Assembly (NCBI GenBank): GCA_964291405.2
Contig: OZ219926.1
Coordinates: 3,616,001-3,680,000, forward strand
Length of the DNA: 64,000 bases
Reading direction: 5' to 3'
Source: Thermodesulfobacteriota bacterium
Lineage (GTDB): Bacteria > Desulfobacterota > Binatia > Bin18
Numbering within the stretch: the stretch's first letter is position 1; every line of letters begins with the position of its first letter. Of this stretch, positions 5,835 through 32,763 are shown in pieces. The notes beneath the pieces are model-generated. The model saw only the letters and a program-made list of their open reading frames with translations. It did no database searches and had not been told where the DNA came from. The translations under genes were made by a program, and so were the position numbers.

Positions 5835-5954
5835 GAGCCCTTTATCAGCGAGGCCAAGACCCTGCGGGCGGCGGCGTCAAGGTCCCCCGTACGAGGGTAG
5901 TGTCTCCCTTTGAAATTGGTACTCCTCTGCGTTCGTCACACTATTCCTTCCTGT

Positions 5955-6075
5955 CCGAGCGCCTGTGGTAATAGTCGAGTCTCGCTCCCGTCTTGAGAGC
6001 CCCAGGCGGGAGTCAGGGGACGATTTTCCTCCCAAACTGGTAGGGGCAGACGCCAGCAGTTGTGTCTAGATGTCC
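5955..6075 (+). promoter_or_regulatory. Conserved upstream element with hairpin (copy A; copy B at 8196-8325)
   Basis: Diverged homologous copies precede Cache genes 1 and 2; stem at 5985-6012 is retained through G-U pairs. Confidence 0.5.
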
Positions 6076-6160
6076 GGGAGCCCTCCTCTCGGCGTCCGTA
6101 CCCTACATGGACCACGCCGGGAGCCCCACTGGCCCTTTCTGCAGGACTGACCGCCGTCAG

Positions 6161-6202
6161 TTCCTTGTAAGATTATGAGGTTTCCTTATAAGATTATGAG
6201 GT
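6161..6202. repeat. 2 x 21-bp tandem direct repeat TTCCTTRTAAGATTATGAGGT
   Basis: 6161-6181 and 6182-6202 differ at one base. Confidence 0.85.
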
Positions 6203-6412
6203 CAATGCCTCTGCCCCTGCCTTACTTTAGCTGTAAACGAAGGCTCTCGGATGAGAGGGAAGGGCATACCGAACGCGGAGGAGAAAGAAATTCAAACTGA
6301 GACACTACCGTCGCCAGGGGATTCTTTACATACGAGCCAAACTCATTATATATACGTTCAGACTGTATGCATGTCCAGGATGCATTTCACGTCTGGAAGG
6401 AAGGAGCTTCAC

Positions 6413-8110
6413 ATGGCCGCAGGAATAGACATTCAGTGGGAACGGAAAAACGGGGCTTTGGTTGCCGCGACATCGCTGATTCTTGTGAGCGGCCTGCTCG
6501 TGCTGGCCGGCATCTTTTCCAATGTACGCCCGGCCTTCGCGCAGACGCAAATCGAATGTCCACTGCCCGCCGGCGTGACTCCGCCCGCGGACCCACGTGT
6601 GACGGCGAAACAGGTGGAAGACGGCCGCGCTACCCTGATGGACTTCGCACTGGCCGTGAGAGAGCGGTCCAGAGAGCATTCCCAGCAGGCCACGACCGTG
6701 GAACAAGGTCAATCCACGACCGTGGAACAAGGTCAATATATCGGATGTATCATCAGGCAGGAGGGCAGTCCCTGGCGTTCCGGTTCCACGTACATCGTAA
6801 CCCTGACGACCGACGGCAGGGTGTACATTCACGCCAAGGACATGGCATTGTCGGGCAGGCTGCTCAACCCCTTGATTTACGCAGAGATCCTTTCCGCGCT
6901 GGGCGTCTCCCCAACCGATCTCGCTAACCTGGCTTCTCCCGATCCTGGCACCGCCGGCCCCGCTCTCCAGGCCGTCCTTGCCGCATTGTCGCAAGAACCG
7001 GATGGCGCTTTCGATGCGACTGCCTCTATACCCGGCGCCTCCGGCCATGCCGCCGTCTATGTCTCGTCCGAATTAGGGGCCGCTCCGATCGTGCTGCTCG
7101 CCGGATTCGATCTCAATGAGTCTCATTTGGTCTCCATTGACGATGAAACAATCGATTACGGTGATCCGGCCGTCACCGCCAGGGACGTGGTGGACCGTGA
7201 GACCTTGAAGGCCTTTGTCACGCAAGCGGGGGAGTTCTTTCTTGAAATCATGAGTACCGGCAATGTAGCGGCGGCCTCGAAAGCCCGGATCGCCTTTCGG
7301 GATCCGAACGGGCCGTGGAGACATGGGTCCGTGTACATTGCCGTGTTGCAACCTGCCACCAATCTCATCCTGTTTCACGGAGCGTTTCCGGATCGGTTCG
7401 AGCTTCGACAAGCAGGGATTTCCCGCGACGCCGTGACCGGAGAGCTCATCGTGGATCAGCTCACCGCCGCGGCGAATAGCGGCCCGGAAGGCGGTTTCTG
7501 GGAGTATCACTTCGACGATCCCGCCGACGATAGCGATAGCGCCGACATCCCCAAGGTGGGTTACGCCCGCGTGTTCTCCGGTCAACTCCCGGGGCCGGGC
7601 GGAACCACGATCCCCACCGACTTCATCATCAATTCGGGATTTTATGTGAGCCCAGCGGGCACAGGGGATCTGGTGGGGGTGCTGGAGAATCCGGGGCCGG
7701 ACTCGTTTCAGAGTGGGGTGAGCGCGCTGTGGGGCTGGGTATGCGACGCCGCGATGGTGGAGATCGAGATCGAGACCGCGCAGGGGGAGGTCGAGCCGTA
7801 CAGGGCGATGTATGGCATGGAGCGGTTGGATACGCAGGCTATCTGTGGAGACACGAATAATGGGTTTGTGTTGTTATTCAACTGGAACCGGTTGGGCGCG
7901 GGTGACCACATGGTCACCGCCTTGGTCGACGGGCTCGAACTGGGCCGGGCGATGGTGCGGGTGACGACCGTAGGCGAGGGGGATCAGGAGGAGTTTCTGC
8001 GCGGGGCGATGGGCGAATGTGTGGCGGAGGACTTCCCGCAGCTGGGGCAGAGTGCCTTATTGGAGTGGCAGCAGAATAGCCAAAACTTCGTCATTACGGA
8101 TGTTCAGTAG
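6413..8110 (+). CDS. Secreted tandem Cache_2-like domain protein with constant C-terminal module (copy 1)
   Basis: Signal-peptide-like ...RPAFAQ; LKAFV..A, PWRHGSVY, GGFWEYHFDDP, KVGYA, INSGFY; C-terminal LENPGPDSFQSG...FNWNRLG; AAGGAG before ATG 6413. Confidence 0.8.
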   Translation: MAAGIDIQWERKNGALVAATSLILVSGLLVLAGIFSNVRPAFAQTQIECPLPAGVTPPADPRVTAKQVEDGRATLMDFALAVRERSREHSQQATTVEQGQSTTVEQGQYIGCIIRQEGSPWRSGSTYIVTLTTDGRVYIHAKDMALSGRLLNPLIYAEILSALGVSPTDLANLASPDPGTAGPALQAVLAALSQEPDGAFDATASIPGASGHAAVYVSSELGAAPIVLLAGFDLNESHLVSIDDETIDYGDPAVTARDVVDRETLKAFVTQAGEFFLEIMSTGNVAAASKARIAFRDPNGPWRHGSVYIAVLQPATNLILFHGAFPDRFELRQAGISRDAVTGELIVDQLTAAANSGPEGGFWEYHFDDPADDSDSADIPKVGYARVFSGQLPGPGGTTIPTDFIINSGFYVSPAGTGDLVGVLENPGPDSFQSGVSALWGWVCDAAMVEIEIETAQGEVEPYRAMYGMERLDTQAICGDTNNGFVLLFNWNRLGAGDHMVTALVDGLELGRAMVRVTTVGEGDQEEFLRGAMGECVAEDFPQLGQSALLEWQQNSQNFVITDVQ

Positions 8111-8215: not shown

Positions 8216-8325
8216 TCGAGACTCGTTCCTGTCTTGAGAACCCAGGGCGGGAGCAAGATAGGAGCAGTGACGATTTTCCTCACCAATTAGTAGTGACAAC
8301 CAGCCGACAATTATGTATAGATGCC
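8196..8325 (+). promoter_or_regulatory. Conserved upstream element with hairpin (copy B)
   Basis: Homologous to 5955-6075; 8216-8320 is missing from the equivalent spacer before gene 3. Confidence 0.5.
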
Positions 8326-8383
8326 GAACGGCCCTTCGTGCCCGTGGGAGTGTCACGTACGGGAGCCGAGAGAGGACCTGAAG

Positions 8384-9976
8384 ATGCAAACTGGAACCTT
8401 GCCTACCCCGATATCGCTGATTCTTGCGAGCGGCCTGCTCGTGCTGGCCGGTGTCTTTTCCGATGCACGCCCGGCCTTTGCGCAGGCGCAACTCGAATGT
8501 CCACTGCCCGCCGGCTTGACTCCGCCTGCGCCTCCACCTGTGACGGCGCAACAGGTGGAAGACGGCAGCGCTACCCTGATGGACTTCGCGCTGGCCGTAA
8601 GAGATCAGTTTGGCCATGGAACAACAACGACGCCGCAACGGACGTTATATGTTGGATGTCTTATCAGACAGGAGGGGAGTGTTTACCGTTCCGGCTCCAC
8701 CTACCTTATCCAACTGAGGCGCGACGGCAGGGTGTTCGTTCACGCGAAGGACATGTCATTGTCGGGCCGGCAACTCAGACCCGTAATTTATGGAGCGATC
8801 CTTCAGGCATTGGGAATCGACCCGGCCGTCCGGACCGACCCTGCTGCGGCCCTGGCCGCCTTCACTGATGCCACCACCGGGGATGGCGGCTCGTTCGACG
8901 TACCCGGTATCCCCGGCGCTTCCGGCCATGCCGCCGTCTATGTCTCGGCCAAATTCGGGAGTCCGGTCGTGCTCCTCGCGGGATTCGATCTCAATGAATC
9001 TCACCTGATTGAAGAAGAAATCGTTCACCTCGACCCGGCCGTTACGGCCAGGGATGTCGTGGACCGAGAAACCTTGAAGGCCTTCGTCACGCAAGCAGGG
9101 GAGTACATTCTCGCACTCGCACAGGAGCAGAATGGCGATATTTTGAAAGCAAAGAACGCCCTGCGGGATCCGAACGGGCCCTGGAGACACGGGCCCGTGT
9201 ACCTCAGCATCTTGAATCCTGCCACCAATCTCATCCTGTTTCACGGCGGGTTTCCGGACCGGCTCGAGCTGCGACGCGGAGGGATTTCCCGCGACATCGC
9301 GACCGGAGAACTCGTCGTGGATCAGCTCATCCGCGCGGCGGAAAGTGGCCCGGAAGGCGGCTTCTGGGAATATTACTTCGACAACCCCGCCGACGATGCC
9401 GACAGCGCCGACGTCCCCAAGGTGGGTTACGCCCGCGTGTTCTCCGGTTCATTCCGGAGAAGAGACGGAACCGAATTCCCAATTAACTTCATCATCAATT
9501 CGGGATTTTATGTGAGCCCAGCGGGCACAGGGGATCTGGTGGGGGTGCTGGAGAATCCGGGGCCGGACTCGTTTCAGAGTGGGGTGAGCGCGCTGTGGGG
9601 CTGGGTATGCGACGCCGCGATGGTGGAGATCGAGATCGAGACCGCGCAGGGGGAGGTCGAGCCGTACAGGGCGATGTATGGCATGGAGCGGTTGGATACG
9701 CAGGCTATCTGTGGAGACACGAATAATGGGTTTGTGTTGTTATTCAACTGGAACCGGTTGGGCGCGGGTGACCACATGGTCACCGCCTTGGTCGACGGGC
9801 TCGAACTGGGCCGGGCGATGGTGCGGGTGACGACCGTAGGCGAGGGGGATCAGGAGGAGTTTCTGCGCGGGGCGATGGGCGAATGTGTGGCGGAGGACTT
9901 CCCGCAGCTGGGGCAGAGTGCCTTATTGGAGTGGCAGCAGAATAGCCAAAACTTCGTCATTACGGATGTTCAGTAG
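8384..9976 (+). CDS. Secreted tandem Cache_2-like domain protein with constant C-terminal module (copy 2)
   Basis: Paralog of copy 1; start MQTGTLPTP after GAGGA. Confidence 0.8.
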   Translation: MQTGTLPTPISLILASGLLVLAGVFSDARPAFAQAQLECPLPAGLTPPAPPPVTAQQVEDGSATLMDFALAVRDQFGHGTTTTPQRTLYVGCLIRQEGSVYRSGSTYLIQLRRDGRVFVHAKDMSLSGRQLRPVIYGAILQALGIDPAVRTDPAAALAAFTDATTGDGGSFDVPGIPGASGHAAVYVSAKFGSPVVLLAGFDLNESHLIEEEIVHLDPAVTARDVVDRETLKAFVTQAGEYILALAQEQNGDILKAKNALRDPNGPWRHGPVYLSILNPATNLILFHGGFPDRLELRRGGISRDIATGELVVDQLIRAAESGPEGGFWEYYFDNPADDADSADVPKVGYARVFSGSFRRRDGTEFPINFIINSGFYVSPAGTGDLVGVLENPGPDSFQSGVSALWGWVCDAAMVEIEIETAQGEVEPYRAMYGMERLDTQAICGDTNNGFVLLFNWNRLGAGDHMVTALVDGLELGRAMVRVTTVGEGDQEEFLRGAMGECVAEDFPQLGQSALLEWQQNSQNFVITDVQ

Positions 9977-10081: not shown

Positions 10082-10144
10082 ATGCCGAACGGCCATTCGC
10101 GCCCGTGTGAGTGTCACGTACGGGAGCCGAGAGAGGACCCGAAG

Positions 10145-11749
10145 ATGCAAACTGGAACCTTGCCTACCCCGATATCGCTGATTCTTGCGAGCGGCCTGCT
10201 CGTGCTGGCCGGCGTCTTTTCCGATGCACGCCCGGCCTTTGCGCAGGCGCAACTCGAATGTCCACTGCCTGCCGGGGTGACTCCGCCTGCGCCTCCACCT
10301 GTGACGGCGCAACAGGTGGAAGACGGCAGCGGCAGCCTGATGGACTTCGCACTGGCCGTGAGAGACATCTTTGTGAACGAGTCGCAGCAGGGCATTCCGA
10401 CCCTCAAGCAGTTAGCCTACGTTGGATGTCTTTTCAGGCAGGAGGGGGGTCCGTGGCGTTCCGGTTCCACCTACGTCGTGAGACTGGCGCCCAGCGACAG
10501 GGTGTTCATTCACGCGAAGGACATGGCATTGTCCGGCAGGCAAATCAACCCCGTGATTTATGAAGCGATCCTGCACGCATTGGGAATTGATCCGGCCGAC
10601 CTGACCAGCCCGGCGGCGGCCAGGACCGCCTTCGCTGCTGCCGCCACCAGGAATGGCGGTGAATTCAACGTCCCTGATATCCCGGGTGCCTCCGGCTATG
10701 CCATCGGCTTTCTCTCGGGCATCTCGGGGACACCTGTCGTGATGCTTGTCGGATTTGATCTTGACTCGTCTCACTTGTCCGCAGAGGAAATTGAGCATAT
10801 CGAACCGGCCGTTACGGCCAGGGATGTGGTGGATCGGGCAACCTTGAAGGCCTTCGTCACGGCAGCGGGGGAATACTTCGTCGGACTCCTTTCGTCCGGC
10901 GATCTGACCGCGGTCTCGCAAGCCAGGTTCATCCTGCGTGATCCGAACGGACCGTGGAGACATGGGTCCGTCTACGTCGCCATCATGGAACGTGTCAGCA
11001 GGATCATCACGCTTCACGGAGGGTTCCCGGATCGGTTCGAGTTTCGACGCGGAGGGATTGCCACCGACATCGCGACCGGAGAACTCGTCGTGGAGCAGCT
11101 CATCCGCGCGGCGGAAAGTGGCCCGGACGGCGGCTTCTGGGAGTATTACTTCGACAATCCCGCCGACGATGCCGACAGCGCCGACGTCCCCAAGGTGGGT
11201 TACGCCCGCGTGTTCACCGCTCACATCCCGAGGCCGGACGGCAGCATCATCTCGATCGACTACATCGTCAATTCGGGATTTTATGTGAGCCCAGCGGGCA
11301 CAGGGGATCTGGTGGGGGTGCTGGAGAATCCGGGGCCGGACTCGTTTCAGAGTGGGGTGAGCGCGCTGTGGGGCTGGGTATGCGACGCCGCGATGGTGGA
11401 GATCGAGATCGAGACCGCGCAGGGGGAGGTCGAGCCGTACAGGGCGATGTATGGCATGGAGCGGTTGGATACGCAGGATATCTGTGGAGACACGAATAAT
11501 GGGTTTGTGTTGTTATTCAACTGGAACCGGTTGGGCGCGGGTGACCACATGGTCACCGCCTTGGTCGACGGGCTCGAACTGGGCCGGGCGATGGTGCGGG
11601 TGACGACCGTAGGCGAGGGGGATCAGGAGGAGTTTCTGCGCGGGGCGATGGGCGAATGTGTGGCGGAGGACTTCCCGCAGCTGGGGCAGAGTGCCTTATT
11701 GGAGTGGCAGCAGAATAGCCAAAACTTCGTCATTACGAACGTGGAGTGA
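10145..11749 (+). CDS. Secreted tandem Cache_2-like domain protein with constant C-terminal module (copy 3)
   Basis: Paralog of copies 1 and 2. Confidence 0.8.
   Translation: MQTGTLPTPISLILASGLLVLAGVFSDARPAFAQAQLECPLPAGVTPPAPPPVTAQQVEDGSGSLMDFALAVRDIFVNESQQGIPTLKQLAYVGCLFRQEGGPWRSGSTYVVRLAPSDRVFIHAKDMALSGRQINPVIYEAILHALGIDPADLTSPAAARTAFAAAATRNGGEFNVPDIPGASGYAIGFLSGISGTPVVMLVGFDLDSSHLSAEEIEHIEPAVTARDVVDRATLKAFVTAAGEYFVGLLSSGDLTAVSQARFILRDPNGPWRHGSVYVAIMERVSRIITLHGGFPDRFEFRRGGIATDIATGELVVEQLIRAAESGPDGGFWEYYFDNPADDADSADVPKVGYARVFTAHIPRPDGSIISIDYIVNSGFYVSPAGTGDLVGVLENPGPDSFQSGVSALWGWVCDAAMVEIEIETAQGEVEPYRAMYGMERLDTQDICGDTNNGFVLLFNWNRLGAGDHMVTALVDGLELGRAMVRVTTVGEGDQEEFLRGAMGECVAEDFPQLGQSALLEWQQNSQNFVITNVE
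11268..11737 (+). repeat. 470-bp direct repeat, copy 3 (coding part only)
   Basis: Matches 7629-8098 with one substitution (GCT>GAT). Confidence 0.9.
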
Positions 11750-23776: not shown

Positions 23777-26542
23777 ATGGCCAGAGCCAACCAGACCCCG
23801 GAACAAGCTGCTCGCGAAAATATTGACAGCTTGCTCACCCAGGCCGGCTGGGCGGTCCAGGACAAAAATCGTATCGATCCCAAGGCGAGTCTCGGCCTTG
23901 CCATACGTGAATATCAGACCGATGCCGGGCCGGCCGACTACGTTCTCTGCATCGACAGGAAACCCGTCGGCGTGGTCGAGGCCAAGCCGGAACACTGGGG
24001 CCAGAAGATCACGACGGTCGAGGAGCAATCGGGACGTTACGCGTCCGCAAAACTCAAGTGGGCGAGCGACAGCACATCCTTACCCTTTGTGTACGAAAGC
24101 ACCGGCGTACTCACCCGTTTCACCGACGGACGCGACCCGAGACCGCGCTCCCGCGAGGTGTTCAGTTTTCCCCGGCCGGAGACCATGCAGGACTGGTACA
24201 CCCGGTCGGCCACGCTCCGCGCACGGCTCCGGGCGCTGCCGAGTTTAGACCCTACCGGCTTGAGAGCGTGCCAGGTCAACGCCATCGAGCAGCTCGAAGC
24301 CTCCTTCCAAGCTGACCGCCCGCGCGCCCTGATTCAAATGGCGACCGGCTCGGGCAAGACCTATACCGCCATCACCTCGATCTACCGGCTGCTCAAACAC
24401 GCGGACGCCAAACGTGTCCTCTTTCTGGTGGACACCAGGAACCTGGGCGAACAGGCCGAGCAGGAATTCATGGCCTACGTGCCCGGCGACGACAACCGCA
24501 AGTTCACCGAGCTGTACAACGTCCAGCGTCTCAAATCATCCTTTGTCGCCAAGGACAGTCAGGTCTGCATCAGCACCATCCAGCGTATGTACTCGCTGCT
24601 GAAGGACCAGGACATGGACGAAGCCGCCGAAGAGATCAACCCGGCGGAGATGGTCCAGCCCAAACGACCCATGCCGGTCGTTTATAACCCCAAGATTCCG
24701 CCCGAGTTCTTTGACTTCATCATCATCGACGAGTGTCACCGCTCGATTTACAACCTGTGGCGTCAGGTCCTGGAATACTTCGACGCCTATCTCATCGGTC
24801 TGACCGCCACACCCGACAACCGCACCTATGGTTTCTTCAAAACGAACGTCGTCAGCGAATACGACCACGAGCAGGCCGTCGCCGACGGCGTCAATGTCGG
24901 TAACGAAGTCTATGTCATCGACACGGAAAGAACCAAGCACGGCGGGCAACTCAAGGCCGAACAGCAGGTCGAAAAACGCGAGCGCCTGACACGCCGCAAG
25001 CGCTGGGAGATTCAGGACGAGGACCTCGCCTATACCGCCCGGGAACTCGACCACGCCATCGTCATCCCCGACCAGATTCGCACCATCGTCCGCACCTTTC
25101 GCGACAAGCTGCCGGAGATATTTCCCGGCCGCACCGAAGTGCCCAAGACGCTGGTTTTTGCCAAGACCGACAGCCACGCCGACGACATTATCCAGACTGT
25201 GCGTGAGGAATTCGCCCAAGGCAACGAGTTCTGTAAGAAGGTCACCTACAAAACCGAGGAAGACCCGAAATCCGTCCTGGCCCAGTTCCGCAACGACTAC
25301 CACCCGCGTATCGCCGTGACCGTGGACATGATCGCCACCGGCACAGACGTCAAGCCGCTCGAATGCCTGCTCTTCATGCGTGATGTCAAAAGCCGCAACT
25401 ATTTCGAGCAGATGAAGGGCCGTGGCACCCGCACCCTCGACCATGACGATCTTAAGAAAGTCTCGCCCTCCGCGGCCAGCGGCAAGACCCACTATGTGAT
25501 CGTGGACGCCGTCGGCGTCACACAATCACTCAAGACCGCCAGCCAGCCGCTCATCACCAAACCCTCCGTGCCGCTCAAGGACCTCGCCATGGGCGTGATG
25601 ATGGGCGCACATGACGAGGACACGGTCAGTTCCCTTGCAGGCCGTCTCGCCCGGCTCAACCAACAACTTGACCTCCCTGAGCAGGAACGTATCCGCGAAA
25701 AGGCCGGCGGCATCGCCCTCACCGACATCGTCGGTAATCTGCTGCACGCCATCGACCCGGACCAGGTCGAAGCCAAGGCCCGCGAGACCGAGTCCGTACC
25801 CGACGGTGCCGAACCCTCACCGGCCGCCCGCGAACAGGCCCAGGAGCAGTTGGTCCGTGACGCTACCGGTGTGTTCAACGGCGAGCTGATTGAACTGCTC
25901 GACTCGATTCGCCGCAACAAGGAGCAGACCATCGACCATGACAGCCTGGACCGAGTGTTGCGCGCCGAGTGGGAGGGTGACGCGCACGAGAACGCCGAAG
26001 CCCTGGCGCAGGATTTCCGGCACTATCTGGAAGCCAACCGCGATGAAATCGAAGCCCTGACCATTTTTTACGCCCAGCCACACCGCCGCCGTGAGTTGAC
26101 CTACGCCATGATCCGCGAGGTGTCCGACAGACTCAAGAACGACCGGCCCCGCCTTTCCCCTTTGCGCGTCTGGCAGGCGTATACCCTGCTCGACGAATAC
26201 AAGGGACAGCAGCCTGCCACTGAACTGACCGCGCTCGTGGCCTTGATCCGCCGCGTCTGCGGCATTGACGCGACAATCTCACCCTATTCGGAAACCGTGC
26301 GCCGCAATTTTCAGCAGTGGATCATGACGCACCACAGCGGCAGCGGAGAGAAGTTCAACGAGGAGCAGATGGACTGGCTGCGCATGATTCGTGACCACAT
26401 CATCACCTCGTTTCATCTGGACCGCGACGATCTGGACATGGCTCCATTCGATGGCAAGGGCGGCATGGGGCAGATGTACAAGCTCTTCGGTGACCGGATG
26501 GATGATGTGATTGATGAGTTGAATGAGGCGCTAGCCGCATGA
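23777..26542 (+). CDS. hsdR: Type I restriction enzyme R subunit
   Basis: PADY...EAK nuclease motif, MATGSGKT, DECH, GLTATP, QMKGRGTR, EcoEI-type C-terminus. Confidence 0.95.
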   Translation: MARANQTPEQAARENIDSLLTQAGWAVQDKNRIDPKASLGLAIREYQTDAGPADYVLCIDRKPVGVVEAKPEHWGQKITTVEEQSGRYASAKLKWASDSTSLPFVYESTGVLTRFTDGRDPRPRSREVFSFPRPETMQDWYTRSATLRARLRALPSLDPTGLRACQVNAIEQLEASFQADRPRALIQMATGSGKTYTAITSIYRLLKHADAKRVLFLVDTRNLGEQAEQEFMAYVPGDDNRKFTELYNVQRLKSSFVAKDSQVCISTIQRMYSLLKDQDMDEAAEEINPAEMVQPKRPMPVVYNPKIPPEFFDFIIIDECHRSIYNLWRQVLEYFDAYLIGLTATPDNRTYGFFKTNVVSEYDHEQAVADGVNVGNEVYVIDTERTKHGGQLKAEQQVEKRERLTRRKRWEIQDEDLAYTARELDHAIVIPDQIRTIVRTFRDKLPEIFPGRTEVPKTLVFAKTDSHADDIIQTVREEFAQGNEFCKKVTYKTEEDPKSVLAQFRNDYHPRIAVTVDMIATGTDVKPLECLLFMRDVKSRNYFEQMKGRGTRTLDHDDLKKVSPSAASGKTHYVIVDAVGVTQSLKTASQPLITKPSVPLKDLAMGVMMGAHDEDTVSSLAGRLARLNQQLDLPEQERIREKAGGIALTDIVGNLLHAIDPDQVEAKARETESVPDGAEPSPAAREQAQEQLVRDATGVFNGELIELLDSIRRNKEQTIDHDSLDRVLRAEWEGDAHENAEALAQDFRHYLEANRDEIEALTIFYAQPHRRRELTYAMIREVSDRLKNDRPRLSPLRVWQAYTLLDEYKGQQPATELTALVALIRRVCGIDATISPYSETVRRNFQQWIMTHHSGSGEKFNEEQMDWLRMIRDHIITSFHLDRDDLDMAPFDGKGGMGQMYKLFGDRMDDVIDELNEALAA

Positions 26543-26573
26543 AGGAAGAAGGGAGAAGGAAAAAGGATGAAGT
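26539..26573 (+). repeat. 5 x heptamer NNRAAGG (block A)
   Basis: ATGAAGG AAGAAGG GAGAAGG AAAAAGG ATGAAGT. Confidence 0.85.
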
Positions 26574-26946
26574 TGTGGACCTTCGGATTCGGACGAAGGA
26601 GTTTGCACTGCGGATCATTCGCCTTTACTCAGGTCTTCCCAAGCGGACCGAGGCTCAAGTAATAGGCGGGCAAATTATTCGTTCTGGAACGTCTGTAGGA
26701 GCAAATTACCGGGAGGCATATCGCGCGCGGAGCAAAGCGGAGTTCATCGCAAAGGCTGGCGACTGTTTGAAGGAGATTGAGGAAACCGGTTATTGGCTTG
26801 AGCTGCTTGTCGATTCAGGAATTGTTTCCGAGGATCGACTTGAGAACTTGAGAAACGAATGTGGTGAATTAACTGCGATATTCGTCACTTCCATTCGGAA
26901 TGCGAAGAGCAATGAAGAAAGGCAAAAGGGAGAAGGAAAAAAGTAG
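26539..26946 (+). CDS. Four-helix-bundle protein (23S rRNA IVP / Avd-like family)
   Basis: RTKEFALRII, QIIRSGTSVGANYREA..ARSKAEFIAK, EIEET.YWLELL; ATGA overlap with the hsdR stop. Confidence 0.92.
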   Translation: MKEEGRRKKDEVVDLRIRTKEFALRIIRLYSGLPKRTEAQVIGGQIIRSGTSVGANYREAYRARSKAEFIAKAGDCLKEIEETGYWLELLVDSGIVSEDRLENLRNECGELTAIFVTSIRNAKSNEERQKGEGKK

Positions 26947-26957
26947 AAGGAGAAAGG
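26916..26957 (+). repeat. 6 x heptamer NNRAAGG (block A2) across the four-helix-bundle stop codon
   Basis: AGAAAGG CAAAAGG GAGAAGG AAAAAAG TAGAAGG AGAAAGG. Confidence 0.8.
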
Positions 26958-26963
26958 ATCATA

Positions 26964-27036
26964 CGGGCGCCAGACTGCGCGTTGATTTTGACCGGCATTT
27001 CTTCCTTCTGCCTTCCTCCTTCTTCCTTAGATCGCA
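26964..27036 (+). pseudogene. Orphan copy of the hsdS TRD1 3' end containing inverted heptamer block B (26997-27028)
   Basis: Aligns with 28299-28368 (CGCGTTGATTTTGACC...TTTCTTCCTTCTGCCTTCCTCCTT). Confidence 0.8.
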
Positions 27037-27062
27037 TAGAGACAGGTGGCCGGTCTCAGTGC

Positions 27063-27404
27063 TCACGGAGTTGCAGCTTGGGCGTCCCCCGTCTCTCTTC
27101 CCTCCGTGCCGAGCGCCTGCACGACCGAATCCGGATCGTGGTCTATCACGGTCAGCAGTACACGGGCGGCCCGGTCTGGAACCCGGCGGCCCTGTTCCCA
27201 GTCCTGCACGGCACGTACATCAAGGCCAAAACGGTCGGCGAATTTCTGCCGGCTCAGCTTCAGACGTTTGCGAAGCGCGACGATCCGCCCAGCGCTGGGG
27301 TCGTCCACGATCCGGCAGGAAAGTGCTGTCTCACCGCGCACATGGGCAAGCACCTCGCCCAGGGCTGTTTCAATCTCTTGGCCGATGTTGGTGCGTTCCT
27401 TCAT
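27063..27404 (-). CDS. XRE-HTH antitoxin (HigA-like)
   Basis: LRKRLKLSRQKFA...VQDWEQGRRVPD.AARVLL. Confidence 0.9.
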   Translation of the reverse strand: MKERTNIGQEIETALGEVLAHVRGETALSCRIVDDPSAGRIVALRKRLKLSRQKFADRFGLDVRAVQDWEQGRRVPDRAARVLLTVIDHDPDSVVQALGTEGRETGDAQAATP

Positions 27405-27730
27405 TTTTCTCGCCTCTCTTTTCTGATCGCCGCCACCAGCTTGGACAACGCCTTGACGTCCGCCGCCGTCAGATCGTCGCGGTCCGCCTTCGCATAGGCC
27501 GTCAGCATATAGATGGCTTCGGGGCCAGGGTAGAAGTAGATTACGCGAAGGCCACCCCGCTTGCCACGACCGGAACCGGCCCAGCGCAACTTGCGGATGC
27601 CGCCCGTCCCCCGGATAACGGGTGCCGTATCGGGAGTGGACATGATCGTCGCTTCCATTTCCCTCCGGGCTTCTGGCGAAAGCAGCTTACGAATGGCGCG
27701 TTCATAGGTGCGGGTAAAGTACAGGTGCAT
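27401..27730 (-). CDS. RelE/HigB-family toxin
   Basis: VIRGTGGIRKLRW...GKRGGLRVIYF...LTAYAK. Confidence 0.92.
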   Translation of the reverse strand: MHLYFTRTYERAIRKLLSPEARREMEATIMSTPDTAPVIRGTGGIRKLRWAGSGRGKRGGLRVIYFYPGPEAIYMLTAYAKADRDDLTAADVKALSKLVAAIRKERREK

Positions 27731-27737
27731 TGGCTCT

Positions 27738-27764
27738 CAATTATGCGGCAATGCCGCATAATTG
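27738..27764. promoter_or_regulatory. Perfect 13-bp inverted repeat, probable TA autorepression operator
   Basis: CAATTATGCGGCA-A-TGCCGCATAATTG directly upstream of the toxin ATG. Confidence 0.7.
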
Positions 27765-27772
27765 GCAAGATG

Positions 27773-27871
27773 CCGTTCGATGGCAAGGGCGGCAAGGGGC
27801 AGATGGATAAGCTCTTCGGCGACCGGATGGATGATGTGATTGATGAGTTGAATGGGGTGTTGGCGGTGTGA
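27773..27871 (+). pseudogene. Duplicated 3' end (99 nt) of hsdR
   Basis: Aligns ungapped with 26444-26542, about a dozen mismatches (PFDGKGG.GQM.KLFGDRMDDVIDELN). Confidence 0.9.
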
Positions 27872-27880
27872 AGGAAAAAC

Positions 27881-29488
27881 ATGAAGGAAGAAGGGAGAAG
27901 GAAAAAGGCGGAAGTGGCGGAGCTTCGGACTCGGACGAACGTGGCGCATGAAGCGATACCGATCAGAGAAGTACTCATCCCGAGAAATGAGAAGGTCACG
28001 CCTGCCGACTATCCTGAGTTGCCTTATATTGGTCTTGACGACATTGAAGCTCATTCCATGCGTTTGCTCGGTTCAAAACCCGCTGCAAGCATGAAAAGTT
28101 CTGCCAAACGTTTCTATCCTGGCGATGTGCTTTACTCGCGGCTCCGTCCATATCTGAACAAAGTCTGGCTGTCGGACCGCAACGGTATTTGCTCATCCGA
28201 GTTCATCGTGATGCCCGGCAATCAGCTCGTGGACCCCGGCTTTCTCGCACTCAGGCTCAACGCGATAGATTTCGTTTCATTCGCAAACAGCTTGAATGCG
28301 GGCGATAGACCACGCGTTGATTTTGACCAAATTTCTTCCTTCTGCCTTCCTCCTTTTTCCTTGTCGCAACAGCACCGCATCGTCACCAAGATTGAGGAAC
28401 TATTTTCCGAACTGGACAAAGGCATCGAAAGCCTGAAAACCGCTCAGGCGCAACTCAAGGTCTATCGCCAGGCCGTGCTCAAGCATGCCCTCGAAGGCAA
28501 GCTCACGGCGCAGTGGCGCGAAGAGAGCAGAGACAAGCTTGAGAAACCCGAGCGACTGCTCGCCCGTATCAAGAAGGAGCGGGCGGTGCGCTACGAGCGG
28601 CAACTCAAGGAGTGGGAGGTTGCTGTCAAGGAGTGGGAGGGAAGCGGAAAATCTGGAAGAAAGCCTCCCAAGCCGCAAAAACCGAAAAATCCATTGCCTA
28701 TCGCGGTTAGTCAGGTAGATAACCCTTTCTGGACTCGCCTTTTCTTGGATGAACTCGCGGCCGAGGCCGTGCTCGGTAAAATGCTGGACAAGGAAAAGAA
28801 TACAGGTACGCCTAGGTACTATCTCGGCAATATCAACCTTCGCTGGGGGAAGTTCGACCTCGAAAACTTAAAGACGATGAAAGTGGAGGAAAGCGAAATC
28901 GAGCGCTACCGCTTAGAAAAGGGAGACCTCGTTGTCTGTGAAGGCGGCGAGCCCGGACGATGTGCAGTATGGGAAGGACAGGAGTCTACCATGCTGATTC
29001 AAAAAGCTCTTCATCGCGTACGTTTCACGGAGAGCTATAGTCCATACTTCGCATATTACTTCATGACTTACGCTGCTAGTTCAGGACTGCTCTCACCAAA
29101 TTTCACAGGGAGTACTATCAAGCATCTTACAGGCAAAGGACTGGGGAGTGTGTTGTTCCCACTTTGCACCTTGGCAGAGCAAAATCAGATCGTGCACTTC
29201 TTGGATAGAGCCTTTAATATATGTGATGAATTAGGTTGCCAAATCGAACGCGAAATCCGACGGTCTAATTCTCTCCGTCAGTCAGTTCTCAGTAAAGCCT
29301 TCTCCGGTCAACTCGTCCCGCAGGACCCGCACGACGAACCGGCCTCGGTTCTTCTGGACCGAATCAGGGCCGAAAGAGAGAAGGCGGTGAAGAACAACCA
29401 CACCAAGAAAACAAAGAAGAGAAAGACGACTGCACGAATACCGCTCCCATCGTCTCCAAAGTCTGGAGATAACCCACCCCGCCACTAA
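27881..29488 (+). CDS. hsdS: Type I R-M specificity subunit; N-terminus derived from the four-helix-bundle gene start (alternative GTG start 27941)
   Basis: GDVLYSRLRPYLNKV, QHRIVTKIEELFSELD, YRQAVLK.ALEGKLT, EQNQIV, LRQSVLSKAFSGQLVPQDP. Confidence 0.93.
   Translation: MKEEGRRKKAEVAELRTRTNVAHEAIPIREVLIPRNEKVTPADYPELPYIGLDDIEAHSMRLLGSKPAASMKSSAKRFYPGDVLYSRLRPYLNKVWLSDRNGICSSEFIVMPGNQLVDPGFLALRLNAIDFVSFANSLNAGDRPRVDFDQISSFCLPPFSLSQQHRIVTKIEELFSELDKGIESLKTAQAQLKVYRQAVLKHALEGKLTAQWREESRDKLEKPERLLARIKKERAVRYERQLKEWEVAVKEWEGSGKSGRKPPKPQKPKNPLPIAVSQVDNPFWTRLFLDELAAEAVLGKMLDKEKNTGTPRYYLGNINLRWGKFDLENLKTMKVEESEIERYRLEKGDLVVCEGGEPGRCAVWEGQESTMLIQKALHRVRFTESYSPYFAYYFMTYAASSGLLSPNFTGSTIKHLTGKGLGSVLFPLCTLAEQNQIVHFLDRAFNICDELGCQIEREIRRSNSLRQSVLSKAFSGQLVPQDPHDEPASVLLDRIRAEREKAVKNNHTKKTKKRKTTARIPLPSSPKSGDNPPRH
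28331..28362 (+). repeat. Inverted heptamer block B' embedded in hsdS coding sequence
   Basis: ATTTCTT CCTTCTG CCTTCCT CCTTTTT CCTT; reverse-complement similar to 27881-27915. Confidence 0.8.
29434..29468 (+). pseudogene. Relic of an hsdM 5' end (ATG>ACG)
   Basis: ACG AAT ACC GCT CCC ATC GTC TCC AAA GTC TGG AG = (M)NTAPIVSKVW versus the real HsdM start MTTQPIVSKVW. Confidence 0.8.
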
Positions 29489-29511
29489 CGCGGCACCCCT
29501 CCAGGGAGGGA
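29471..29511. repeat. REP-like element
   Basis: AACCCACCCC...GCGGCACCCCTCCAGGGAGGG. Confidence 0.8.
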
Positions 29512-29540
29512 ACTACTCCCCTAACTTGATAAAGGACATA

Positions 29541-30155
29541 CTATATTATTCTGAGGTGGGAGGAAGGGATTGGATTCTCAAATTCATATAGCTTAGGGAC
29601 AGCTCTTAAATCCCCAAGAAGAAACCATGTTTGTCCAGTTGGAGGGCGAGCACCGAAAAGCCATATCTCTGCTACTGGAGTCTCTTCCGCTATCTGGGAA
29701 TACAAGGAAGGAATAATAGGTCCGTCTCGGTGGCCGTAAATAGCAACGGTCAATCCGGGAGAGTCGGGATATTGGTTAAGTTTGTTTATGATGTGATACA
29801 GGGTCTCTTTAGAATTCTTCTCGATAGAAGGAAGTTCCTTTAGCTGAACGGGTCTAAACTGGCGTGTTTTTGTCCCGTTCCAGGAAAGCACACAATCATA
29901 ATCGTCCTTCTCGTGTAGCCTTACCCCTACAGGTCTGTTGAGTATGCATTCTTGTACAGCTAAAGCGAATGCAGCAGCCATCCACCACTCTTTTACTTTC
30001 TTATGGTCTTTTTGAATAAGACCGTCCCAACTTAAGTTTTTTTCCTTTGCTTGGCGATAAAAATCCGCGAGTATTGATTCCGGTTGGTAATACTTTAAGG
30101 AACCCCATTGTCGTAACTGCATTTTTGTGGGACCTTCCCAATTCTTTCTGTTCAT
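29541..30155 (-). CDS. Hypothetical protein, possible PD-(D/E)XK-like nuclease (D...QxK)
   Basis: AT-rich ORF; DDYDCVL-x12-VQLKEL; EIWLFG. Confidence 0.55.
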   Translation of the reverse strand: MNRKNWEGPTKMQLRQWGSLKYYQPESILADFYRQAKEKNLSWDGLIQKDHKKVKEWWMAAAFALAVQECILNRPVGVRLHEKDDYDCVLSWNGTKTRQFRPVQLKELPSIEKNSKETLYHIINKLNQYPDSPGLTVAIYGHRDGPIIPSLYSQIAEETPVAEIWLFGARPPTGQTWFLLGDLRAVPKLYEFENPIPSSHLRII

Positions 30156-30427
30156 GGAGTCCTCTTGCCTCTACGCTAGCAGAGTATCAAGCTGCGCCAG
30201 CTCGTCTGTGTATCGCTGAATATCCTGTAGGGTAGTGACAATATCCTTATGTTTGGGCGTCTCCGGCAACACTGCGTTCCGTCTTTTCACACTTCAAGAG
30301 CATATCAGCCCGTATGCGGTCCTGTTCCTCTGTTCCCATACTAACCTCTCCTTCTCATCGCTCTCTTCCATTTTTCTTCGTAGAGACAACCCCCTCCCTA
30401 CATTTGGGCGTGCCATACTTTTTCATT

Positions 30428-30974
30428 TGCTGTATAACTAAAAAATATAACAATTTGTTCTCCTTCCGCCCTGGACTATCCCTCTTTTTCCGGTACACTG
30501 TAAAAGGTGGAAGAAGGAGGCCAGCCATGATGTCGCTCCTTGAACTTGCCGAACGGTTCCCAGACGAACAAGCAGCCCGGGACTGGTTTGAACGACTACG
30601 CTGGGAGGGGCAGCGCCGGTGCGGGTATTGCCAGTCAGCCCGTACCACAGCCGTGCCCATCGGTCCATGAGAATCTATGCTGTGGCATACAGGAACTGAG
30701 AGGCGGTGCCCATGATAAACATCACCGTATCCGTTGACGCCGACCCCCATCGGTCCGTTCGTATTCGGACGACGGTGCTGCCCCGCTCTGGAAAACGTGC
30801 ATGGATGGCTCAATAAGTTATTGATTTTGCTTAGGGTTATTTTTGAAGAACGTCTATTTTCTCGAAAATGGTTCGATAAGTTATTGATTTTCCTGACTTT
30901 TGGCCTGAGACCCCCCCCTATGCATCACAAAATGGTCTGATAAGTCCTTGATTTTCCTTTGTATCATACAGTAG
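30428..30974 (+). mobile_element. IS1595-family remnant (transposase zinc-ribbon fragment 30527-30670; ends uncertain)
   Basis: MSLLELAERFPDEQAARDWFERLRW...CGYCQS, truncated; weak inverted ends CTGTATAAC / TATCATACAG. Confidence 0.6.
30814..30953. promoter_or_regulatory. Three IHF-consensus sites spaced 63-64 bp
   Basis: TAAGTTATTGATT at 30814 and 30877, TAAGTCCTTGATT at 30941; all match YAANNNNTTGATW. Confidence 0.55.
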
Positions 30975-31032
30975 AACTATGTTTTAATATAAAACTCGAA
31001 TAGTCCTGTACACCGGCCCAGAGGCTGCTGGC

Positions 31033-31242
31033 ATGGTGTCAACCGGCGGAGGAACGGCGCGGGCAGCGTTGCGCCGTGTGTCCACGGCCTCGCTGATTCG
31101 CCAGGCGGTCAGCGAATTTCAGATACGGGAACAGCGCGGCTCGATTGCGTCGTTTCAAGAGGTGCTCAAGCAGACGGCGGGCATCTGGCAGGCCGGGGAC
31201 GGGCTTGAGTACCAGGAGCGTATGCGCCAGGAATGGCTTTAG
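31033..31242 (+). pseudogene. N-terminally eroded RHH/CopG-type antitoxin, no toxin downstream
   Basis: VSTASLIRQAV...AGIW...DGLEYQERMRQEW. Confidence 0.55.
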
Positions 31243-31278
31243 AGGGCAACCCTCCAAGGAGGGGGTCAAGAGGGGAGT

Positions 31279-32763
31279 ATGACTACGCAGCCTATTGTCT
31301 CTAAAGTCTGGAGCTTCTGCACCACCCTGCGCGATGACGGGGTGAGCTATGGCGACTACCTGGAACAGCTCACCTATCTGATCTTTCTCAAGATGGCCGA
31401 CGAGTACGCCACACCGCCCTACAACCGCAATGTCGGCATCCCTGCCGAATACGACTGGCAGAGCCTGAAGTCGAAAAAAGGCGCGGAGCTTGAAAGCCAC
31501 TACGTCACCCTGCTTCGCGAGCTTGGCACCAGGAAAGGTATGCTGGGCCAGATTTTTACCAAGGCCCAGAACAAGATTCAGGACCCGGCCAAGCTGTTCC
31601 GCCTCATCGACATGGTGAACGACACCGAATGGGTGAGCATGGGTGCCGACGTGAAAGGGGATATTTACGAAGGGCTGCTTGAAAAGAACGCCGAAGACAC
31701 CAAGTCAGGCGCGGGCCAATATTTCACGCCGCGCGCCCTTATCCGCACCATAGTCGAATGCGTCCGGCCCGAACCGGGTAATCTCATCGCCGACCCGGCC
31801 TGCGGGACGGGCGGCTTCTTTCTGGCCGCCTATGACTTCATTATCAACTCGGGCAATTTCAACCCCGATAAGGAGCAGAAGGCGTTCCTCAAGCACAAGG
31901 CGTTTCACGGCAACGAGATCGTCGCCAACACGCGCCGGTTGTGCCTGATGAATATGTTCTTGCACAACATTGGTGAGATCGACGGCGACGCGCCTATTTC
32001 GTCAAACGATTCGCTGGTGGCCGATGCCGGCGAGCGCTTTGACTACGTGCTGGCCAACCCGCCGTTCGGCAAGAAGAGCTCCATGAGCTTCACCAACGAG
32101 GAGGGCGAACAGGAAAAGGACGACCTGACCTATAACCGGCAGGACTTCTGGGCCACGACTTCAAACAAACAGCTCAATTTCGTGCAGCATATTCGCACCA
32201 TGCTGAAAACCACTGGGAGGGCCGCTGTGGTTGTTCCCGATAATGTTTTGTTTGAAGGCGGGGCCGGCGAGACCATTCGCAAGAAGCTGCTGGACAACAC
32301 CGACCTGCACACCATCCTGCGCCTGCCGACCGGTGTATTCTACGCCCAAGGGGTCAAGGCCAACGTGATTTTCTTCGACAACCACGAAGCCAGCCCGAAT
32401 CCCTGGACAAAAAAAGTCTGGTACTACGACTATCGCACCAATATTCACCACACGCTCAAGAAAAAGCCCCTCCGCTTTGAAGACCTGCAAGATTTTATCC
32501 AGTGCTATCACCCCCAAAACCGCTGGGAACGGAGGGAAACCTGGGACGCGGAAACGAACCCCGAGGGGCGGTGGCGGGCGTTCTCGTATGACGAGGTTCT
32601 CGCTCGGGATAAGACCAGCCTGGATATTTTCTGGCTCAAGGACAAAAGCCTGGCCGATCTCGATAATCTGCCTGAGCCGGACGAGCTGGCAGCCGAAATT
32701 ATTGAAAACCTGGAGTCCGGGCTTGCCCGTTTTAGGGAGATTGTGACGGCGTTGGAGCGGTGA
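31279..32763 (+). CDS. hsdM: Type I R-M N6-adenine DNA methyltransferase
   Basis: GAGQYFTPR, DPACGTGGF, ANPPFG, VPDNVLFEGGAG. Confidence 0.96.
   Translation: MTTQPIVSKVWSFCTTLRDDGVSYGDYLEQLTYLIFLKMADEYATPPYNRNVGIPAEYDWQSLKSKKGAELESHYVTLLRELGTRKGMLGQIFTKAQNKIQDPAKLFRLIDMVNDTEWVSMGADVKGDIYEGLLEKNAEDTKSGAGQYFTPRALIRTIVECVRPEPGNLIADPACGTGGFFLAAYDFIINSGNFNPDKEQKAFLKHKAFHGNEIVANTRRLCLMNMFLHNIGEIDGDAPISSNDSLVADAGERFDYVLANPPFGKKSSMSFTNEEGEQEKDDLTYNRQDFWATTSNKQLNFVQHIRTMLKTTGRAAVVVPDNVLFEGGAGETIRKKLLDNTDLHTILRLPTGVFYAQGVKANVIFFDNHEASPNPWTKKVWYYDYRTNIHHTLKKKPLRFEDLQDFIQCYHPQNRWERRETWDAETNPEGRWRAFSYDEVLARDKTSLDIFWLKDKSLADLDNLPEPDELAAEIIENLESGLARFREIVTALER

Follow-up and report, generated by a model that had tools for sequence, protein, structure and literature searches.

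Organization of the type I restriction-modification locus

This analysis concerns a 64,000-nt stretch of a Thermodesulfobacteriota genome (assembly GCA_964291405.2, contig OZ219926.1, positions 3,616,001 to 3,680,000 of the forward strand), hereafter called the window, and within it a set of tandem heptamer arrays made of purines (R arrays) or pyrimidines (Y arrays). These lie around a small four-helix-bundle (4HB) gene and inside the adjacent hsdS gene of a type I restriction-modification (R-M) locus. The comparisons below indicate that the arrays go with the 4HB gene and that the locus holds two partial copies of a single cassette resembling the intervening sequences (IVS) of 23S rRNA genes. 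An earlier note on this DNA had treated the arrays as a device of the hsd locus itself, and its interpretation is partly supported.

The R-M island spans about 23.8-32.8 kb of the window and is surrounded by metabolic genes, as seen in a Pfam scan of the open reading frames (ORFs) of the window. The hsdR, hsdM and hsdS genes are all intact, with ORFs of 921, 494 and 535 aa, respectively. The features of the locus are as follows, where TRD and CR stand for the target recognition domains and conserved regions of HsdS, and TRF for Tandem Repeats Finder.

23777..26542, + strand: hsdR, type I restriction subunit, EcoEI/EcoAI-like (Pfam EcoEI_R_C 1.1e-40, ResIII 1.8e-40; NCBIfam type I endonuclease models)
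26539..26946, + strand: 4HB gene, 135 aa (PF05635 / TIGR02436)
26541..26572, + strand: R array A, GAAGGAA x4.6 (TRF), 5' arm of the cassette, inverted repeat with 26999-27028
26911..26959, + strand: R array A2, 3' end of the 4HB gene (purine-tract scan, TRF), inverted repeats with B
26961..26996, + strand: segment b, frameshifted remnant of hsdS codons (..NAGDRPRVDFDQ), 85% direct repeat of 28296-28328 with a 1-nt indel
26997..27028 (TRF 26999-27028), + strand: Y array B, TTCTTCC x4.3, 3' arm, non-coding here
27063..27404, - strand: helix-turn-helix (HTH) antitoxin-like gene, MqsA/NadS-type HTH (Pfam HTH_31, HTH_3, MqsA_antitoxin; NCBIfam)
27401..27730, - strand: RelE-family toxin-like gene of a type II toxin-antitoxin pair (Pfam PF06296, 1.7e-8)
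27773..27879, + strand: copy 2 of the hsdR 3' end (R3'), non-functional (88% direct repeat; tblastn hsdR 864-920; TGA at 27869-27871)
27870..27939, + strand: R array A' and 4HB codons 1-19 fused in frame to hsdS (90% direct repeat; TRF)
27881..29488, + strand: hsdS, 535 aa (Pfam Methylase_S; comparison with locus L001)
28331..28362 (TRF 28333-28362), + strand: Y array B', TTCTTCC x4.3, within hsdS and translated as ISSFCLPPFS where TRD1 meets CR1
31279..32763, + strand: hsdM, type I methyltransferase (Pfam N6_Mtase 5.5e-74, HsdM_N; PADLOC MTase_I 7.9e-198)

The stop codon of hsdR shares the tetranucleotide ATGA with the start codon of the 4HB gene. The 4HB protein matches PF05635 at 3.9e-21 and 75.7 bits (cut-off 33.8), TIGR02436 at 98.7 bits (cut-off 24) and the PDB entry 2rld_A at 4.4e-24; it occurs in no PADLOC-listed defence system, and Pfam, NCBIfam and PADLOC detect no nuclease, recombinase or transposase domain in its 135 aa. 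HsdS begins with a leader derived from the 4HB gene (aa 1-19), which is followed by TRD1 (about aa 21-138), the border segment encoded by the Y array, CR1, TRD2 and CR2.

Heptamer arrays and their pairing

All the arrays listed in the earlier note are present at the positions given there, and both TRF and a tract scan (25-nt window, at least 92% purine or pyrimidine) show them to be real and non-random. TRF returned 27 rows for the 64-kb window, and the four with period 7 all lie in the hsd locus. Six purine tracts were found in the window, three of them at the locus, and both of the two pyrimidine tracts are there. Array A encodes MKEEGRRKK, the N-terminus of the 4HB protein, and A2 includes a period-14 purine array at 26919-26957 (TRF). 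Array A', with GAAGGAA x3.7 at 27883-27908 in TRF, encodes MKEEGRRKKAEV; this translation and that of B' as ISSFCLPPFS had been given correctly, and the Y array sits exactly at the border between TRD1 and the conserved region, as had been claimed. Because their period is seven, the arrays are not a product of codon periodicity.

The proposed complementarity of the purine and pyrimidine arrays was borne out. A and B form an inverted complementarity of 30 nt (83%) with arms 427 nt apart, A' and B' one of 23 nt (87%) with arms 426 nt apart, and A2 and B one of 24 nt (79%) with arms 55 nt apart, so that the last two arrays named form a local hairpin. The minimum free energy folds of 26520-27045 and 27860-28380 close by these pairings. 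The arm-to-arm duplex energies are -35 to -40 kcal/mol (-37.3 kcal/mol for A:B and -35.7 kcal/mol for A2:B), and the means with a shuffled 3' arm are -24 to -27 kcal/mol. As no + strand terminator turned up in a terminator scan from hsdR to the hsdS end, the A2-B hairpin does not count as a consensus intrinsic terminator. A match of this hairpin to MIR529 was dismissed as chance, with E=0.099 and 22 bits where the gathering score is 75.

Two partial copies of one ancestral module

Two direct repeats connect the region upstream of the 4HB gene with that upstream of hsdS. The first, 26444-26597 = 27773-27939 (88-90%), comprises the last ~100 nt of hsdR (26444-26542, copy 1 of the duplicated R3 segment) and the first 19 codons of the 4HB gene. 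The second, 26961-27028 = 28296-28362 (85% and 97%), contains an indel of 1 nt, by which copy 1 is put out of frame. The earlier note had noticed this second match and had described it as hsdS-specific flanks of the first pyrimidine array; the match is real, but it stops at 27028, not 27036, and the homology with hsdS ends at the outer edge of Y array B. The larger upstream direct repeat had been missed, as had the minus-strand RelE/HTH pair between the copies.

For comparison, 80 loci with 4HB relatives were fetched out of at least 600 matched stretches in genome contigs, and three of them (L002, L004 and L073) are decisive for the history of the window. Locus L002 is one tight operon in which hsdR is followed by a GTGA overlap, a purine array, the 4HB gene (its product being 93% identical to that of the window) and hsdS; the 4HB stop codon overlaps the hsdS start (MNVAREVIP), a Y array lies at the TRD1 border, and TRD1 is 85% identical to that of the window. 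In L004 (Verrucomicrobiales), hsdR is followed by ATGA, an R array, the 4HB gene, a second purine array (R2), TRD1 and a Y array. This R2 array is the counterpart of A2 and holds the hsdS start codon (MKEEGRS); TRD1 is 60% identical to that of the window, and the Y array is almost unchanged. In L073, whose hsdR is 91% identical, an R array and 4HB codons 1-71 are joined straight to a Y array, after which come antitoxin/toxin remnants, a duplicated hsdR 3' end (6478-6538) and an array-free hsdS with another TRD1. It follows from the layouts of L002, L004 and L073 that, on sequence comparison, the ancestral unit is one module of the form hsdR 3' end / R / 4HB / (R2) / TRD1 / Y.

At 3222-8529 of L002, hsdR, hsdS and hsdM are each interrupted by frameshifts, including one where the Y array has its T-run; either mistakes in long-read assembly or genuine decay could account for them. 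With the frameshifts ignored, hsdS of L002 would encode a half-size subunit consisting of TRD1 and one conserved region.

Both copies in the window can be derived from this module by deletion. Copy 1 is, by alignment, a module that kept the 4HB gene and lost TRD1, leaving a stand-alone R-4HB-Y unit with 36 nt of dead hsdS. Its A2 array directly abuts the hsdS remnant b and the Y array, and the frameshifted remnant indicates that copy 1 once carried TRD1. Copy 2 is, on the same comparison, an L002-type module from which the body of the 4HB gene was deleted, so that 19 4HB codons are fused to hsdS. Measured in L002 coordinates, the deletion at the junction CGGACGAA|CGTGGCG amounts to 322 nt, a length that shifts frame 0 of the 4HB gene into the frame of hsdS. 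The native hsdS ATG, as present in L002, was lost at this junction, which leaves HsdS with two possible starts, the 4HB-derived ATG (27881) and the in-frame GTG (27941). The PADLOC Specificity_I models first match HsdS of the window at residues 26-45, which fits a putatively foreign leader.

Thus, the two modules described in the earlier note, in which either the 4HB gene or TRD1 would be the interchangeable content between a purine and a pyrimidine array, are instead direct-repeat paralogues of 85-97% identity, each of them a deletion derivative of R-4HB-TRD1-Y as seen in L002 and L004. The copies are not identical, and the 3' end of copy 1 is of the L004 type, whereas copy 2 is of the L002 type. 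Recombination between diverged alleles, as far as the alignments indicate, is at least as likely an origin as simple tandem duplication.

Between the copies lie the RelE/HTH toxin-antitoxin pair and the duplicated hsdR 3' end. The candidate toxin and antitoxin genes overlap by 4 nt (27401-27404), and a promoter scan places a promoter-like site at 27768-27740 ahead of the toxin-like gene; the gene families and the overlap are those expected of a putative RelE-type toxin/HTH antitoxin pair. Remnants of the same pair, which is intact in the window, are found at 6218-6440 of L073. This shared position implies that the pair entered before the two lineages split and is decaying in L073. A plasmid DNA search with the whole locus returned the hsdR end and the toxin gene only, and yielded a cassette-free comparator from Gemmobacter.

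The pyrimidine arm inside hsdS

The five copies of the Y array, taken from four genomes, are nearly invariant, whereas the sequences on either side of them diverge. In the comparison with L004, the third base was kept in 9/9 informative identical-residue codons of the array, and in 41/84 such codons in the rest of TRD1 (p=0.0026 against the array). The corresponding values for L002, 8/9 in the array and 89/108 in the rest of TRD1, do not discriminate. The third positions of the array are frozen contrary to the local codon bias. An action of constraint at the nucleotide level on the hsdS-embedded arm is thus supported by the codon comparison.

The hsdS gene of L073 shares CR1 with that of the window (121/322 identities overall, near-identical at residues 163-262). 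Its TRD1 is a different one, however, and both the LPP motif and the array are missing. TRD1 and the Y array therefore behave as a swapped segment with its boundary at Y, and the Y array is not a property of this hsdS backbone. To this extent, the suggestion that TRD1 is an exchangeable cassette stands; that it is invertible is not supported, as neither an inverted hsdS copy nor a recombinase within about 12 kb was found. The earlier note had also looked to hsdS genes lacking a 4HB neighbour, where the same pyrimidine tract would count against its view. The cassette-free Gemmobacter orthologue has only a 20-nt C-rich pyrimidine run (TCTATCCCTCTCCCCCCCCT) that encodes SIPLPPL at the equivalent border, and hsdS of L073 has no such tract.

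The TRD1 type itself is widespread. For this segment (hsdS residues 21-160), 2553/3163 candidate proteins matched at E<=1e-10. Among the best 119 homologues (that of the window excluded), and counting from protein sequences only, 62 carry IS.F.LPPFS, 29 start with MNVxH as in L002 and 22 have a KEEG-like leader. A plasmid tblastn search with TRD1 gave only relatives at 37% identity or less. As a separate observation, this TRD1 type is kept at 60-90% identity across several phyla, which is unusual for a target recognition domain, and many homologues start with MNVxHEAIP or with a KEEG-like leader that looks array-encoded.

Heptamer arrays as a feature of the 4HB gene family

The PF05635/TIGR02436 family is very large, with 7996/8000 scored candidates matching. 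For each of 78 loci (77 fetched loci and the window), the best ungapped inverted repeat between the start region (-200 to +60) and the stop region (-80 to +300) of the 4HB gene was scored, and a score of at least 13 was taken as a bracket. The controls were pairs of the same geometry from the same loci, located at least 500 nt from any 4HB gene. Inverted repeats bracket the 4HB ORF in 61/78 loci and in 6/480 controls (Fisher p=2e-58), and of the 61 bracketed loci, 55 have an upstream arm with 7 as its best period, compared with none of the six control matches. Under an earlier scoring scheme, 58/80 loci exceeded the 99th percentile of 800 controls. The link between arrays and 4HB family is thus supported. 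Bracketing was also seen in 7/7 plasmid 4HB genes on six stretches, with scores of 17-30; this set comprises 6 of 37 records (Chlorohelix, Pseudanabaena, Gloeocapsa, two Nostoc and Treponema), taken non-randomly from the top 14 table rows.

The heptamer unit varies by locus (ATGAATT, AAGGCTG, GCAGAAT, AAGTCAG, GATTGCC, GGATGGC, the 8-mer ATCGGGTG and others), yet the arms within each cassette still match. In a tree of 72 4HB proteins, of limited support and with relatives sharing unit labels, the unit follows the clades and the window falls in a GAAGGAA clade, so both arms must change together. The match of clade and unit points to co-inheritance and not necessarily to recognition of the unit by the protein. 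Judged from these comparisons, it is the 4HB gene that the arrays go with, and not hsdS.

The 4HB genes are mostly co-directional with their neighbours (62/77 upstream and 58/75 downstream, on crude ORF calls). Domains were scanned in 140/285 neighbour ORFs, covering loci L002-L042, and proved diverse. They include acetyl-CoA carboxylase, malate dehydrogenase, the halves of a split transketolase, an ABC permease/ATPase pair and lactate permeases, and among the defence genes EcoEI-type hsdR (L002, L003, L004 and L006), MmeI, BrxC, a cas2|cas4 pair and SNF2/PLD helicases with Eco57I-type methylases. A reverse transcriptase (RT) domain was found in 0/140 scanned neighbours. An hsd-specific array system is not supported, since the 4HB genes accompanied by arrays lie in housekeeping operons, in CRISPR-cas loci and in R-M systems of other types as well. 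In L010, L025 and L055, the ORF has a local R-Y hairpin next to it, on one side or on both, and the A2-B hairpin of the window is alike. Some genomes contain several cassettes with different units, namely L010 and L079 (from one metagenome-assembled genome) and L087 with two.

Two other scoring approaches were abandoned: RNAduplex energies of 210-nt flanks were about -100 kcal/mol in cases and controls and did not discriminate, and a purine/pyrimidine-tract scan of the 80 loci recovered brackets in only about one quarter because most heptamers are not purine-only. The overlapping start/stop ATGA is present in the upstream-arm units of L015, L017, L020, L021, L024, L027, L032, L040, L041, L054, L063, L068, L076 and L082, and in a period-7 unit it falls in all three frames over three units. 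The idea that heptamers generally supply stop and start codons was rejected, as the units GAATGCA and GAAGTCA lack ATGA.

Several individual cassettes deserve mention. In CRISPR-cas operons, L041 has two copies (5289-6369), one of them between cas2 and cas4, the Pseudanabaena plasmid pPg_04 (L083, 3001-3369) has one between csx2 and cas1, and L023 has one near cas6. In L038 (465-803) a cassette separates the two genes of a split transketolase, one encoding its N-terminal and the other its C-terminal half, and in L030 (6001-6375) one lies between an ABC permease gene and the gene of its ATPase; insertion between translationally linked partners seems to be tolerated. The two cassettes of L087 (Nostoc punctiforme plasmid pNPUN01, 2998-3453 and 5864-6286) have the unrelated units GGAGGTC and GGGGTGT and flank a XisH/XisI/integrase cluster beside TnsA/Mu-type transposase genes. 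In L013 (6360-6914), the pyrimidine unit CCTTTTTCCTTTTGCCTTCT is repeated six times downstream of the 4HB gene at an exact spacing of 107 nt, as part of a tandem array whose longer repeat includes the 3' arm.

Comparison with known systems

The closest parallel is the IVS of 23S rRNA genes. According to the accessible passages of PMC4990558, the Coxiella IVS encodes an S23p (4HB) ORF, carries tandem GACAGAT heptamers upstream of the initiation codon with a copy number that varies among strains, and is bounded by terminal inverted repeats whose 28-bp stem RNase III cuts; older proposals of the IVS as a mobile element are quoted there, and a pentamer is reported for Xcc0516. As far as these passages go, the likeness with the IVS of Coxiella, Leptospira and others consists of a PF05635 ORF within terminal inverted repeats, variable-copy tandem heptamers by the start codon and an AG-rich region before the start. 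The window cassette has the terminal inverted repeats and the 5' tandem heptamers and does not have the location in rRNA. It sits between hsdR and hsdS and not in helix 25 or 45 of 23S rRNA, one of its arms is embedded in a host gene and co-encodes the host protein, and the arms of the ancestral hsd module are 430-770 nt apart and enclose TRD1 plus the ORF. RNase III cutting has been published for the rRNA version; for the cassette described here it is a prediction. An ORF-bearing IVS is reportedly found in Leptospira as well, as cited in the same paper. By these shared features, the cassette is to be regarded as an IVS-type 4HB element in protein-coding operons, one arm of which co-encodes a part of HsdS.

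Inverting type I hsdS loci with a tyrosine recombinase are known as hsdS shufflons. The locus resembles them in having repeats at TRD borders and in TRD replacement as the outcome, but the window has no inverted hsdS or TRD copy and no recombinase within about 12 kb, and its shared repeats are direct; the hsdS copies are one complete gene and a 36-nt remnant in equal orientation. In RAYT/REPIN systems, by analogy, a short repeat that also multiplies in the genome stands in inverted copies on either side of a small gene. The 4HB protein differs in lacking a nuclease or transposase domain, and its repeats are tandem heptamers instead of single palindromes.

The accessible text of PMC10053308 describes the resemblance of PF05635 to Avd, the accessory protein of diversity-generating retroelements, and the likeness is that of a homologous four-helix-bundle fold family. 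Unlike in those retroelements, neither an RT nor a template/variable repeat pair is present near the 4HB gene of the window. Heptamer arrays of the kind found in Xanthomonas and cyanobacteria (STRR-type) share the tandem heptamers, and the 4HB genes of Nostoc and Gloeocapsa are bracketed by such arrays. Such arrays often form convergent inverted pairs, 70 of which have been described in X. campestris, with the unit GGGAATC in Xanthomonas (PMC4692102). A difference is that the link to a 4HB gene is absent from that paper as far as its available text extends, in which 'S23' and 'four-helix' occur 0 times. In the open full-text literature, a heptamer link to 4HB genes outside rRNA was not found, the Coxiella IVS paper being the only one found for heptamers with a 4HB gene, and a link of 4HB genes to type I R-M loci was not found either.

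Proposed explanation and alternatives

We hypothesize that the arrays are the terminal inverted-repeat arms of a 4HB cassette of IVS design that is lodged between hsdR and hsdS, and, with the RNA-stem mechanism included, we put the probability of this explanation at roughly 0.55. The arms would pair in the operon transcript into a long stem enclosing the ORF, which RNase III might cut as in the published rRNA version. Such cutting could shield the host operon from the insertion and determine how strongly the 4HB gene is expressed. The expression of hsdS may also be set in this way, since the start region of copy 2 or the end of TRD1 would lie in the stem. That the arms act as RNA and not as DNA is a step that we infer by analogy with the IVS. 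Most likely, the cassette is selfish, or at the least propagates itself, and is inherited together with its arrays.

Several results weigh against this explanation. The z-scores of the whole-segment folds (-1.93 for 26520-27045 and -1.78 for 27860-28380) are modest, and in each case 3/100 shuffles gave an equal value. The A':B' pairing was equalled by at least 1/200 composition-matched shuffles, and the arms of the window are only 83-87% complementary. No bracket was found within the search windows in 17/78 loci. In the 61 arm pairs, the sense-strand mismatches number 42 G-U and 42 A-C; since a sense-RNA stem should prefer G-U, RNA is not favoured over DNA. With regard to mobility of the cassette, the loci showed neither an empty site nor a target duplication nor a gene resembling a transposase.

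The main rival to the RNA-stem model is a role at the DNA level, which we consider possible though clearly less probable. The heptamers would then be putative binding sites, as double-stranded DNA or as a hairpin, for the pentameric 4HB protein, and the complex could maintain, copy or move the cassette by a logic like that of RAYT/REPIN; the arrays may at the same time be hot spots of deletion and exchange that promote gain and loss of the 4HB gene and swapping of TRD1. The equal numbers of G-U and A-C mismatches are as expected for DNA symmetry or concerted evolution of the arms, and the heptamer unit tracks the protein clade. Junctions fall at array edges both in L073 (4HB codon 71 to Y, and Y to the middle of the antitoxin gene) and in the window (A2 to b, and Y to the toxin-antitoxin cassette). 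The copy number of the heptamer varies among relatives and, according to the accessible part of PMC4990558, among Coxiella strains, and several genomes have multiple cassettes with different units (L010/L079; L087). On the other hand, the 135-aa protein has no detectable nuclease, recombinase or transposase domain, no target-site duplications or empty sites were seen, and the correlation of clade and unit is explained equally well by simple co-inheritance.

A more far-reaching proposal, which we put forward only tentatively, is that PF05635 genes and inverted heptamer arrays together form a widespread and hitherto unrecognised class of self-propagating cassettes in which the pentameric protein recognises its own unit. 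If this were true, recognition would explain why unit and protein clade change together, and the arrays would serve the protein in copying the cassette into operons or moving it there. Both the 23S rRNA IVS and many 'orphan' arrays, such as STRR-type arrays and the Xanthomonas GGGAATC pairs, would be members or relics of the class. In type I R-M operons the cassette would have fused with a TRD, so that 4HB and TRD1 travel as a module and rewire specificity.

It is unlikely that the R and Y arrays are a dedicated hsd device, in which long-range stems, perhaps bound by the 4HB protein, control the translation of hsdS, or in which the arrays mark TRD1 as exchangeable or invertible and so change type I specificity. 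The R array of copy 2 holds the only available hsdS ATG and is complementary to the Y array 426 nt downstream, so pairing could occlude initiation; the TRD1 type with the IS.F.LPPFS border is widespread, and the swap seen in L073, with a shared CR1, another TRD1 and no array, has its boundary at Y. However, arrays bracket 4HB genes in many operons unrelated to restriction, and the repeats common to both copies are direct, so they would give deletions and not inversions. There is no second hsdS or TRD copy in inverted orientation, and no recombinase family was found among the ORFs from ~11.8 to 46 kb, i.e. within about 12 kb of the locus. Swapping of TRDs at the borders of conserved regions also occurs in type I systems without such arrays.

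Coincidence, with the purine tracts merely encoding Lys/Glu/Gly/Arg-rich termini and the pyrimidine tract a Ser-Phe-Leu-Pro-Pro segment of HsdS, is very improbable and is already contradicted: the pyrimidine run for SIPLPPL in the 4HB-free Gemmobacter orthologue speaks for it, but the period of seven is not that of codons, B at 26997-27028 is non-coding yet 97% identical to B', third positions are frozen despite the local codon bias, hsdS of L073 has the same CR1 without the tract, and elsewhere arrays of unrelated sequence bracket 4HB genes at non-coding positions.

To our knowledge, PF05635/TIGR02436 has no known function outside the Avd relatives, and the ORF-bearing rRNA IVS has gone unexplained since the 1990s. 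An inverted heptamer bracket in most of the members examined, whatever the operon, turns a curiosity of rRNA genes into a general and testable element, and some heptamer arrays of bacterial genomes that have lacked an explanation may have originated from the cassette. In terms of R-M biology, the locus presents an hsdS coding sequence under constraint from a foreign repeat and an hsdS start codon taken over from the cassette. It is also a warning for annotation, as the 19 N-terminal residues of HsdS, and probably similar KEEG-like leaders (22/119 of the best homologues), are cassette-derived.

Other features of the window

Among the window ORFs scanned within about 12 kb of the 4HB gene, no RT domain was found, and Rfam gave no family and no rRNA in 25500-29800. 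The gap between hsdS and hsdM (29541-31278, ~1.8 kb) is low in GC (0.44-0.50) and contains a 204-aa minus-strand ORF that resembles only clusters of 'hypothetical protein' (Atlas score 0.97) and to which neither Pfam nor NCBIfam nor PADLOC gives a family; no family was assigned to the ORFs 29541-30155 and 30355-30813. The orthologous Gemmobacter locus has a DUF262 gene at the position of this gap. Farther upstream, a GAGATC x2.7 micro-repeat occurs at 7760-7775, 9626-9641 and 11399-11414, with a spacing of about 1.8 kb, each time inside one of three consecutive + strand ORFs (6251-8110, 8321-9976 and 10082-11749), which suggests three tandem paralogous genes.

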